The notes under the pieces were generated by a model. The model was not told the DNA's origin. It was given only the letters and a program-made list of their open reading frames with translations, and ran no database searches. Of a stretch of DNA of 5,228 bases, positions 51-5,228 are shown one piece after another (the stretch's first letter is position 1; the number at the start of each line of letters is the position of its first letter). The position numbers were made by a program, and so were the translations under genes. The stretch lies in IMG/VR virus record IMGVR_UViG_2778261673_000005, one strand, 5' to 3'. Source of the DNA: a virus (lineage: Duplodnaviria > Heunggongvirae > Uroviricota > Caudoviricetes).

Positions 51-332
51 CTAAATCAGTAAGTTGGCAGCATCACCCGCCGTGCCATCCTGAGAGAATT
101 CCATATGCAACCTGCATTTTTTCCCTTTCCAGTTATGCGGCTCATCAAGTTTGGCATTAATTGCAGCTCTGATTCCCCGCGCTTGCGCCCCCCATTCATC
201 CTGATCATCCCAGCGTCCTGAACTGCAACTACCTGTAGCAGTAGTTTTGTGGCAATCTGAAGGGTGTAAAGGTGTGCATCCCGCAACAAAACCGACCCAA
301 AAAGTCAACATAACGATTTTCTTTAATCCCAC
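51..332 (-). CDS. Small lipoprotein with partial TolA C-terminal-domain-like sequence (truncated paralog of the 483-911 gene)
   Basis: 93-aa ORF with GTG start at 332 preceded by GAGGAG about 6 nt upstream. N-terminus MGLKKIVMLTFWVGFVAGC has a hydrophobic signal segment and lipobox VAGC. C-terminal ARGIRAAINAKLDEPHNWKGKKCRLHMEFSQDG aligns by eye with AHQIKSAIEKQFGDASKYSGKECTLRMHMAPNG of the neighbouring ORF, but the protein ends before the rest of the domain. Confidence 0.55.
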   Translation of the reverse strand: MGLKKIVMLTFWVGFVAGCTPLHPSDCHKTTATGSCSSGRWDDQDEWGAQARGIRAAINAKLDEPHNWKGKKCRLHMEFSQDGTAGDAANLLI

Positions 333-3384: not shown

Positions 3385-3442
3385 TTCTCAATCTCTCGAT
3401 GGCGCAGTGCAGCAGATGCCAGTTGTTCAGGCTGACGTATAA

Positions 3443-3470
3443 AGTATAAATAAACTGGTTCCAGTGTAAA
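3443..3470 (-). promoter_or_regulatory. Candidate sigma70 promoter for the nin-like/Q operon
   Basis: On the minus strand: -35 TTTACA (3465-3470), 16-bp spacer, -10 TATACT (3443-3448), about 55 nt upstream of the ATG at 3384. It lies downstream of the terminator that ends the S8 gene. Sequence-only prediction in AT-rich DNA. Confidence 0.35.
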
Positions 3471-3506
3471 GCCCCCACATTGATGGAATAAAAATCAAAC
3501 AATAGA

Positions 3507-3536
3507 TTGCTGGGATAAAAATACAACGCTTATTAT
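3507..3536 (+). promoter_or_regulatory. Candidate promoter for the small hydrophobic ORF
   Basis: -35 TTGCTG (3507-3512), 18-bp spacer, -10 TATTAT (3531-3536). This would give a leader of roughly 115 nt before the ATG at 3659. Weak prediction; other hexamer pairs in this AT-rich region are possible. Confidence 0.2.
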
Positions 3537-3658
3537 TAAAGCGGTTAGACAAATTAAATTTTAATGTTATGCAAATCTGCCAGATTAGCATAATATCTCA
3601 TTTGAAAACCGCTGAAATAACAATCTTATCAGGATTAATCATATTAAGGTGAGTAAAT

Positions 3659-3745
3659 ATGGAAAACAACAAATCTGCACATTACGCTCCTTTTTTATCT
3701 GTAATACTTTTTGTATTTTGTTGTGTATGGGCGGTATTTTTATAA
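3659..3745 (+). CDS. Unlisted small ORF encoding a 28-aa hydrophobic peptide (candidate small membrane protein or toxin-like peptide)
   Basis: ATG at 3659 preceded by AAGGTGA (3646-3652) with 6-nt spacing. Translation is MENNKSAHYAPFLSVILFVFCCVWAVFL, stop TAA at 3743-3745: a polar N-terminus followed by one 17-residue hydrophobic segment. It is followed 14 nt later by the strong hairpin at 3759-3792. Absent from the ORF track, presumably because of a length cutoff. Confidence 0.45.
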   Translation: MENNKSAHYAPFLSVILFVFCCVWAVFL

Positions 3746-3758
3746 AACACACCCACAA

Positions 3759-3792
3759 ATAAATCAAACCCGCTACAGCGGGTTTGATTTAT
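3759..3792. terminator. Strong hairpin terminator between the convergent small ORF (+) and S8 peptidase gene (-)
   Basis: 15-bp perfect stem 3759-3773 / 3778-3792 (core AAATCAAACCCGC / GCGGGTTTGATTT) with 4-nt loop TACA. It lies 7 nt beyond the S8 stop on the minus strand and 14 nt beyond the small-ORF stop on the plus strand. T-rich flanks on both sides but no clean U-run. Confidence 0.55.
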
Positions 3793-3799
3793 ATAGTTG

Positions 3800-5167
3800 T
3801 TATACGGAAACTGGCACACGAGCAGGCAATGGATAGTGAGCCCAGTTATTAGCATTTAAAGCTCTTACACCATCAGCATAAACTTGTGTGTTTCCATCTA
3901 ATGATTTTAAAGTTACTACAATAGTTACAGGTAAAGGCTCCATTAAGGCCGGTTCATTCGCTCTCAACGTTGTTTTAGCCTGAAGAGCCCAGTTACCCGA
4001 AGTAATTCCTTTATTAAATGCCTTGCGATGAATTTTTACTGGTGACCACTTTCCACCATGCTCAATTTGAGCTCTCTCATATCCAGATTGACCGTTTTCT
4101 CCTTCCATAGGCACTTTTCCTTTTATAGTATTATTCTCAATTAAGCCAAAACTTAGCTCTACGTTCGCGCGAACATATTCACTGCCGGCATTAGGGTTTA
4201 GTGGTGGTGCATATGCAGCAGTAATTACAATCTCACCTTTAAATTTTCCATTTTGAATAAGTGCCGATGGTATGGGATAGTTTTCCTTTCTCCACCTCAC
4301 CCCAGGAACCAAGAATGTTTGGAAAATCAGAGTAAACCTATCATCACTATCATATAAGGTCTCAATAACCTCATTAGGAATTCCCGCTCCCAAATAGCGT
4401 CTTTCACTTGGCGAGTAATCAGGAGAAGATAATTGAGCGGAATGAATTAATAATGCTTTAATCAATGATGGTGAAACATTAAAGTCTGAATTAGTGGCTA
4501 TTCTCTGCCATGTATGCGCAGCTAAACTTGCCACAATTGGAGCAGCAAAACTAGTACCAAAATTAGAGCAAAGCCTATTATCTGGCCCTACGACCTTTAA
4601 ACTGCTTGCTCCTACATTCCAAGGTCTATGAACCCCACCGCCAGCATGGATTATATCTGGCTTTGGAGTAAATACAGGCCCAGGGCCACGACGAGTATAT
4701 GGTGTCGGTGTTCCAATTTCACTTAAAGCATCATTAGCTTCCATATGAGAAACTGAACCAACTGTTAGTGCTCGGACTGACTCTCCAGGAGAGGAAATTA
4801 AATCAGCACCTCCAAGCGGATCAGGATTTGGCCATGTACGTATAGGTTCATCTACATAATTACCTGCAGCAACTACAAACAAAATACCAAATTTATCGCT
4901 GAGCCGATCTAACTCCATCGCAAAATCACTAAACATCTGCTCATTACATGGTCCGCCTCCCAAAGACAAATTCCAGACTTTTATATCTGGTCTTTTATTT
5001 ACAGCATCTGCTAGCCTCAGAATTAAATCTGATATATAAGATCCATTTTCATCTAAAGCACAAACATCATGGATTTTAGATTTTGTATCAGGAATCCATG
5101 GATGATTGTCATTTAAAAAATGAGCGCCTGATATCAATGAAGACACCATAGTGATCTTACCCAGCAA
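3800..5167 (-). CDS. S8 family (subtilisin-like) serine peptidase homolog with uncharacterised C-terminal extension; N-terminal catalytic motifs not recognisable (possibly truncated or inactive)
   Basis: 455-aa ORF. Contains S8 hallmarks GTSFAAP (catalytic Ser motif), VVAAGN (oxyanion-hole Asn motif) and NLSLGGG, in subtilisin-like order and spacing. No D-[ST]-G Asp motif or canonical HGT His motif precedes them. The first in-frame start is TTG at 5167 with no clear SD; alternative ATG at 5149. An in-frame TGA lies at 5198-5200. About 200 C-terminal residues have no family I can recognise. GC content is visibly lower than the nin block. Confidence 0.7.
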   Translation of the reverse strand: MLGKITMVSSLISGAHFLNDNHPWIPDTKSKIHDVCALDENGSYISDLILRLADAVNKRPDIKVWNLSLGGGPCNEQMFSDFAMELDRLSDKFGILFVVAAGNYVDEPIRTWPNPDPLGGADLISSPGESVRALTVGSVSHMEANDALSEIGTPTPYTRRGPGPVFTPKPDIIHAGGGVHRPWNVGASSLKVVGPDNRLCSNFGTSFAAPIVASLAAHTWQRIATNSDFNVSPSLIKALLIHSAQLSSPDYSPSERRYLGAGIPNEVIETLYDSDDRFTLIFQTFLVPGVRWRKENYPIPSALIQNGKFKGEIVITAAYAPPLNPNAGSEYVRANVELSFGLIENNTIKGKVPMEGENGQSGYERAQIEHGGKWSPVKIHRKAFNKGITSGNWALQAKTTLRANEPALMEPLPVTIVVTLKSLDGNTQVYADGVRALNANNWAHYPLPARVPVSV

Positions 5168-5216
5168 TAGTGGACACGCGGCTAAGTGAGTAAACTCTCA
5201 GTCAGAGGTGACTCAC

Positions 5217-5228
5217 ATGACAAAAACA
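5217..5228 (+). CDS. Probable start of a rightward gene running out of the window (product unknown)
   Basis: ATG at 5217 (ATG ACA AAA ACA = MTKT) preceded by AGAGGTGA (5204-5211) with 5-nt spacing. Only four codons are visible. Confidence 0.25.

Follow-up and report, generated by a model that had tools for sequence, protein, structure and literature searches.

Short type I toxins of Escherichia coli that are associated with a divergent or antisense sRNA include ShoB/OhsC, ZorO/OrzO and Ibs/Sib. Phage morons, such as lambda bor and lom, are autonomous promoter-ORF-terminator cassettes that are expressed from the prophage. In addition, E. coli has small single-pass regulatory membrane proteins, such as AcrZ, MgtS, CydX and YohP, which are products of chromosomal core genes and have known partners. 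Here, we compare with these systems a 28-codon ORF found in a 5,228-nt stretch of Caudoviricetes DNA (IMG/VR record IMGVR_UViG_2778261673_000005), which is referred to below as the window. As judged from its sequence and relatives, the ORF is likely to represent a new family of small membrane-protein genes, of a kind that is already known.

Genomic setting of the window

The window is part of a Rac-like lambdoid prophage, and its sizeable genes are all located on the minus strand. In matching RefSeq loci, the gene order starts with replication genes (ydaU/ydaV), DUF1627, DUF977 and then iteA-iteS, and continues with DUF1367, DUF1364, DUF1133 (Q-like), two TolA-C-terminal-domain proteins, lysis genes and trkG. 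PGAP spells the names iteA/iteS, whereas the literature uses IetAS. The S8 gene of the window (3800..5152, minus strand) matched the PADLOC IetS profile (6.8e-212) at profile positions 297-748 of 749. Thus, it corresponds to the C-terminal part of ietS (450 codons), which codes for the S8 peptidase of the known IetAS system, and it lies outside the cassette described below. An IS3-family element spanning ~5153-5228 of the window cuts ietS at ~5153, and the IetAS system of this strain is presumably inactive.

Several other elements were observed in the window. Positions 1-77 are an IS1 end that matches the IS1X2 end of locus L008 exactly and truncates the second TolA-C-terminal-domain lipoprotein gene (51-332, minus strand); the first copy (483-911) is intact. 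A full-length Rfam match to the STnc100 sRNA (86.6 bits, gathering score 47, E=3e-18) is located at 1022-1208 on the minus strand, downstream of the Q-like gene, and recurs in locus L004. Weak isrK-like matches (~20 bits, below the gathering score) were detected on both strands at 1794-1922, where they surround a strong terminator (~1849-1875) just downstream of the Q-like DUF1133 gene. At the equivalent position of locus L003 (1168-1366), a full isrK (75 bits) was found together with a C4 antisense RNA with a1/b1 targets.

A small hydrophobic ORF followed by a terminator-like hairpin

The ORF codes for a 28-aa peptide, MENNKSAHYAPFLSVILFVFCCVWAVFL, and extends from an ATG start codon at 3659 to 3745 on the plus strand (stop codon included). 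It is preceded by the Shine-Dalgarno (SD) sequence AAGGTGA (3646..3652) with the 6-nt spacer GTAAAT before the ATG, and six contiguous nucleotides of this SD, AGGTGA, match the anti-SD complement. The initial annotation, which had noted an unlisted 28-codon hydrophobic ORF here, was accurate with regard to the coordinates, the start codon, the SD and its spacing. On visual inspection, its statement that this SD surpasses in strength those of most larger genes is approximately correct, although two of the lipoprotein genes in the window have GAGGA and GAGGAG.

In the peptide, the first 9 residues form a polar head, and the remaining 19 (residues 10-28) form a hydrophobic tail that reaches the C-terminus. 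The best 17-residue Kyte-Doolittle mean is 2.88 for the window peptide and 2.74 for clade B, one of two clades described below. As a hydrophobic peptide of less than 60 aa with a predicted transmembrane (TM) helix, it has the general form expected of a type I toxin. A lipoprotein signal peptide was considered and rejected, as lipobox-like FAGC or LFAC was confined to variants of clade B and absent from clade A.

A bidirectional intrinsic-terminator-like hairpin is located at 3759..3792, with a stem of 15 pairs that includes 6 G-C pairs and a loop of 4 nt. Its core is AAACCCGC-TACA-GCGGGTTT, with A- and T-rich runs on either side. The hairpin starts 13 nt past the stop codon of the ORF, and 7 nt separate its other end from the ietS stop codon (3800-3802, minus strand); therefore, it is physically common to the two convergent genes, as had been claimed for the ORF and the S8 gene. 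Downstream of the ORF, clade B has only a weaker A/T-rich hairpin.

Searches of Pfam, NCBIfam and PHROGs did not place the peptide in any toxin family and gave only noise (E of at least 0.05, unrelated families). An exact look-up of eight peptide variants returned none in a collection of 15 billion predicted proteins, and no match for the peptide string was found in literature text. The peptide was also absent from those supplements of PMC5597208 (Sakai Ribo-seq small genes) and PMC11188072 (Enterobacteriaceae microproteome) that were searched. The small ORF was annotated as a CDS in none of the 12 RefSeq loci and neither of the 2 GenBank phage records examined.

To estimate how often such a feature arises by chance, we generated 2000 dinucleotide-preserving shuffles of the 415-nt intergenic region. 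In this test, which concerns a single region and includes no genome-wide correction, 85% of the shuffles had an ATG ORF of at least 28 codons, 1.2% had such an ORF preceded by a 6-nt SD match at a distance of 4-10 nt, and 0.05% had the ORF, the SD and equal hydrophobicity.

A probably mobile cassette at the edge of a cargo slot

Of 5426 complete E. coli genomes, 1177 (~22%) contained DNA corresponding to positions 3560-3800, which was also present in induced phage genomes. tblastn and pattern scans placed the peptide only in Escherichia and Shigella. The tblastn comparison that had been proposed earlier, carried out with phages and plasmids, matched only Escherichia, and the only GTDB species representatives matched were E. 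ruysiae and S. flexneri. Two PLSDB records carrying the ORF (H111 and H112) are 4.8-4.9 Mb in size and are probably chromosomes filed as plasmids.

We then recorded the neighbors of the ORF in 208 fetched loci, which represent 140 unique contexts, some contigs having been fetched twice. The right neighbor was HokD in 144 loci, IetS in 31 and another gene or none in 29; some loci had a P-loop NTPase or other cargo at this position. The left neighbor was DUF1367 in 95 loci, and a different backbone, composed of a small hypothetical protein, DUF968, RusA and Q, was present in 107. In a third group of loci, the prophage remnant terminates just past the ORF stop codon. Homology with the different-backbone loci extends from ~3409 to a point between the stop codon and the hairpin, and clade-B homology stops right after the stop codon. 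Thus, homology is bounded at ~3409-3758 amid different flanks, and the unit is a cassette of ~340 bp that recombines between them, having been kept with two different left neighbors and at least three kinds of right neighbor. The hairpin at 3759-3792 is the junction between this cassette and the cargo, which is ietS here and hok elsewhere. GC content is 0.30-0.36 over 3400-3800, compared with 0.45-0.56 in the DUF1367 gene.

The most likely interpretation of these data is that the small ORF forms the coding end of a low-GC cassette of ~340 bp (~3409-3758), which moves as a unit among Rac-like and DUF968/RusA-type lambdoid prophages of Escherichia and Shigella. Most likely, the cassette is positioned at the edge of a variable cargo/defense slot, between the replication genes and the nin/Q genes, and its ORF is oriented opposite to the phage early-right operon. 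Reverse orientation, a terminator, low GC and presence/absence polymorphism fit the earlier suggestion of an independent moron, and by these sequence features the cassette probably behaves as an independent moron-like unit.

The cargo on the right side of the cassette includes a nucleotide-binding protein with a SLATT-domain protein, a P-loop NTPase, a DNA-binding protein, a zeta toxin, IetAS and hok/sok (examples are L003 3713-5661, L217 2005-3219 and L212 5397-7435). The slot behaves as a defense/toxin hotspot, bounded by DUF977 on one side and by the cassette on the other. The K-12 prophage Qin does not contain the cassette: it has hokD with the same terminator, rem at the position of the ORF, and no homologue of the ORF. 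Therefore, K-12 small-protein datasets are uninformative with regard to this peptide.

Conservation of the reading frame

To avoid selection on the peptide itself, loci were retrieved with a 35-nt anchor located ~235 nt upstream of the ORF. The 28-codon frame was intact in 184 of 186 loci retrieved in this way (115 of 117 usable IMG/VR loci and 69 of 69 usable metagenome loci), and the other two had an IS insertion. Among 12 E. coli genome loci chosen by DNA similarity across the identity range, 11 were intact and one was split by IS1. A natural knockout of the ORF is seen in L008 2208-3070 (PK8566), where an IS1 insertion with a target-site duplication interrupts the frame after codon 8.

These loci comprised 21 nucleotide haplotypes and 16 peptide variants, and the start, stop and length of the ORF were constant in all 21. 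The haplotypes form only two deep clades; thus, the loci are not independent and their intactness is partly a matter of recent common ancestry. The clade A peptide is MENNKSAHY[AV]PFLS[VI]ILFV[FL]CC[VA]WA[VL]FL and the clade B peptide is MENN[KN][FY]AHLAPFLSVILFA[CG]CFIWALFL. When ORFs of at least 22 codons on both strands were compared in six representative haplotypes, only this ORF was kept, and the others changed length or vanished. An upstream 27-codon ORF ending in the SD (3569-3652), considered as a candidate for translational coupling, was not conserved. The initial annotation had raised the possibility of frameshifts or stops, and of an unconserved peptide, in related prophages; the opposite was observed, as both the frame and the peptide are conserved.

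Sequence identity between clades A and B varies along the cassette. It is 94% without gaps at 3385-3470 (island i), 63.5% with 9 gaps between the islands (3471-3526), 86% with 1 gap at 3527-3575 (island ii) and 53% with 3 gaps in the leader (3576-3640). It is then 78% with 1 gap in the SD region, 80.5% without gaps in the ORF, and 39% with 24 gaps in the downstream sequence. The variable putative 5' leader as a whole (3576..3645, plus strand) is 75% identical to the L005 type.

Between the two clades, 16 nucleotide changes in the ORF resulted in 7 amino-acid replacements, which were mostly conservative. In neutral simulations of the clade split, the ORF remained intact in 22% of cases, 7 or fewer replacements occurred in 2.9%, and both occurred in 1.1%; an intact ORF with 7 or fewer replacements that also retained the hydrophobic helix was obtained in 0.4%. 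We also compared synonymous and non-synonymous variation, as had been proposed when the ORF was first noted. The minimum-spanning tree of the 21 haplotypes contained 18 synonymous and 25 non-synonymous changes, which is a modest synonymous excess in the ORF frame (expected synonymous fraction 0.27, p=0.027). This frame scored best of six, with two other frames close to it (16 and 17 synonymous events vs 18). The codon-level selection signal is modest and not decisive.

The strong SD of the window is not conserved. Its variants include AAGGTGG (clade B), AAAGTGA and AAAGCGA; the commonest haplotype has a weakened form, AAAGTGAG, and in another the SD is nearly lost, AAAGCGAG.

Promoter-like sites and a possible non-coding role

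The most conserved segment of the cassette, more so than the ORF, is island i at its left end (3409..3470, minus strand), which shows 94-98% identity among all haplotypes and is retained beside both left backbones. A scan detected in it a promoter-like site on the minus strand (3470..3443; TTTACA-16-TATACT, 10/12), also present in L212, which faces the DUF1367 / DUF1364 / Q-like genes. A constitutive promoter before a Q-like gene would be surprising in a lysogen, and this may therefore be a regulated site. The spacer of the site holds a palindrome, CTGGAACCAG, and a tandem GTATAAA GTATAAA is also present. Upstream of the ORF, no plus-strand sigma-70-like promoter passed the scan in either clade. 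A candidate rightward promoter, which is below the scan criteria, may be located in island ii (3527..3575, plus strand; 86-96% identity between haplotypes): TAGACA at 3546-3551, a 16-nt spacer, TG at 3565-3566 and TATGCA at 3568-3573.

It is possible that the cassette is conserved as a non-coding element, i.e., a divergent regulatory region of the nin/Q genes, a terminator-proximal element or a recombination linker at mosaic junctions, and that the ORF is incidental to T-rich DNA. The superior conservation of island i with its outward-facing promoter-like site is consistent with such a role, as are the placement of the cassette exactly at mosaic boundaries, the variable SD, the small synonymous excess with two other frames scoring nearly equal, and the outcome of the promoter scan. 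In addition, hydrophobic ORFs arise readily in T-rich intergenic DNA, and AT-rich intergenic composition yields them (PMC11188072). However, the ORF forms a conserved island of its own, gapless and situated between a divergent leader and non-homologous downstream sequence, and its start, stop and length are unchanged in the 21 haplotypes while every other ORF breaks. The neutral simulations give 0.4-1% for this outcome, and neither an Rfam family nor a convincing conserved structure was detected over the ORF. A purely non-coding role thus appears possible but doubtful to us. On balance, these comparisons favor the reading in which the ORF is a genuine unannotated gene that is translated into a 28-residue, predicted single-pass inner-membrane peptide.

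Search for an antisense RNA

If the ORF is a gene, it might be the toxin of a type I toxin-antitoxin system, i.e., a putative membrane-depolarizing peptide whose translation would be held down by an antisense RNA, encoded in cis or divergently, by analogy with shoB/ohsC and zorO/orzO. The size and architecture of the peptide fit this proposal (28 aa, with a polar head preceding a hydrophobic helix at the C-terminus), and so does its location in a prophage, with a bona fide hok/sok directly alongside in ~69% of loci. In the window, a promoter-like site on the minus strand (3665..3638; TTTCCA-16-TATGAT) and a weak hairpin with a U-tract (3543-3517) could together define an RNA of ~110 nt that overlaps the leader, and substitutions in this hairpin keep pairing only on the minus-strand RNA, via G-U.

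However, this site was not recovered in clade B. The hairpin has 5-7 bp, which in clade B become almost all A-U/G-U, and three compatible transitions in the hairpin have a chance probability of ~1/8. Neither element is convincingly kept in clade B, and a search of the opposite strand in the window and clade B yielded no conserved antisense promoter or terminator. Rfam searches over 3385-3800 returned nothing beyond a chance-level match and no antitoxin RNA family at E<=1, just as the family searches with Pfam, NCBIfam and PHROGs had returned no toxin. One variant has N in place of the sole basic residue, K5. A hairpin that might sequester the SD and AUG was predicted in the window fold, and its pairing between the SD and codons 9-12 was 93% compatible across 15 haplotypes. 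We did not use it as evidence, as its local MFE (-5 to -7 kcal/mol) was no better than that of shuffles, the alifold energy was only -1.4 kcal/mol, no double compensatory change was seen, and it was not the MFE structure in clade B. Thus, we consider a type I toxin-antitoxin system, as a special case of a genuine membrane-peptide gene, unlikely.

Relation to hok/sok and IetAS

The usual cargo next to the cassette is a complete hok/sok, as judged by Hok/Gef annotation and Rfam sok matches at 100-116 bits, and in hok-type loci the hairpin serves as the hok terminator. In loci that have a decayed hairpin and in which the neighboring hok is pseudogenized or missing, the ORF is intact. In the hok terminator hairpin, a C-G pair is replaced by T-A in L004, which is a compensatory change, and L010 has an intermediate mismatch; the hairpin is degenerate in L214 and L217, in which hok is a pseudogene or deleted.

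With regard to IetAS, ietS adjoins the DNA of the ORF in only ~77 of 1177-1186 genomes, which together with the 31 of 208 loci noted above does not support the initial annotation's view that the ORF may be a functional partner of the protease module. Homology with non-IetAS loci extends to ~3773-3784, inside the hairpin; therefore, the IetAS cargo begins at the terminator and the ORF is outside it. The two had been assigned to the same low-GC insertion, and this holds for composition, as the low-GC tract is continuous, but not for ancestry. The ORF does not consistently co-occur with ietA/ietS and is not co-oriented with them, being convergent with ietS and outside the operon. Most likely, IetAS is one of several cargoes that abut the cassette at the bidirectional terminator. 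The idea that the ORF is an accessory third component of IetAS, e.g., a membrane effector or a target of the S8 protease, is suggested by its adjacent, convergent position, the common hairpin and the shared low-GC tract in the window, but is effectively refuted by this distribution and very improbable, given that the ORF lies on the opposite strand outside IetAS-specific DNA, that the peptide had no match in the PADLOC search, which identified the neighboring gene as IetS, and that one published study names only ietAS (ECOR52) as the cloned system, with limited activity alone.

Proposed mode of action and significance

In our preferred reading, that of a translated membrane peptide, rightward transcription would begin at a weak or regulated promoter in the island at 3527-3575, translation would start at AAGGTGA-N6-ATG, and transcription would end at the hairpin at 3759-3792. 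The peptide would be too short to leave the ribosome before termination and might be inserted post-translationally as a tail-anchored helix. It may then act in the lysogen membrane as a moron-type accessory factor, either by membrane perturbation in a toxin-like manner or by binding a larger membrane protein, e.g., to exclude a superinfecting phage.

A broader proposal, which we offer as speculation and consider rather improbable, is that the peptide is the first member of a new family of prophage membrane effectors that is restricted to Escherichia (type I-like toxin, abortive-infection or superinfection-exclusion). The ~340-bp cassette would then mark, and possibly help maintain or regulate, a cargo/defense hotspot in ~22% of E. 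coli genomes.

If translated, the ORF would be a widespread prophage gene, present in approximately 1 in 5 complete E. coli genomes, which is absent from the 14 annotated loci, the four family libraries and the 15-billion-protein collection examined. The cassette borders a hotspot that exchanges anti-phage and toxin cargo; if membrane toxicity or phage exclusion were true, the peptide would be a new small player in prophage-encoded defense, and its function could help explain the conserved architecture of the hotspot. In practical terms, our analysis sets right a tempting conclusion, namely that the ORF is part of IetAS. It should be noted that the comparable intergenic smORF families predicted so far in Enterobacteriaceae number in the tens of thousands (PMC11188072), and this scale tempers the significance of the cassette ORF.

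Comparison with described systems

The peptide resembles ShoB, ZorO and Ibs in its length of less than 30 aa, its polar N-terminal head and its hydrophobic helix reaching the C-terminus. Like the genes of the short type I toxins, its ORF lies in a stand-alone cassette within AT-rich intergenic DNA and is associated with a prophage or genomic island. However, unlike these toxins, it has no Pfam or NCBIfam similarity, no recognizable antitoxin RNA and almost no basic residues.

The hok/sok system (Hok/Gef, Rfam RF01794), the usual immediate neighbor, likewise codes for a small membrane peptide and occupies the same prophage slot, and hok/sok and the ORF converge on one terminator hairpin. Nevertheless, the two are separate modules: the ORF persists without hok and has no similarity to Hok, and Qin carries hokD with rem instead of the ORF.

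With AcrZ, MgtS, CydX and YohP, the predicted peptide shares its size, a single TM segment and the fact that such genes are overlooked by gene callers. It differs from them in being prophage-borne, restricted to Escherichia and Shigella and without an NCBIfam model match.

Finally, the cassette differs from the morons lambda bor and lom in that it has only a candidate promoter, is unusually small and contains an extra conserved island with a leftward promoter-like site. Like morons, however, its ORF is oriented opposite to the flanking phage operon and has its own terminator, its GC content is ~30% compared with 45-56% in the nin genes, and it is present in some and absent from other related prophages.
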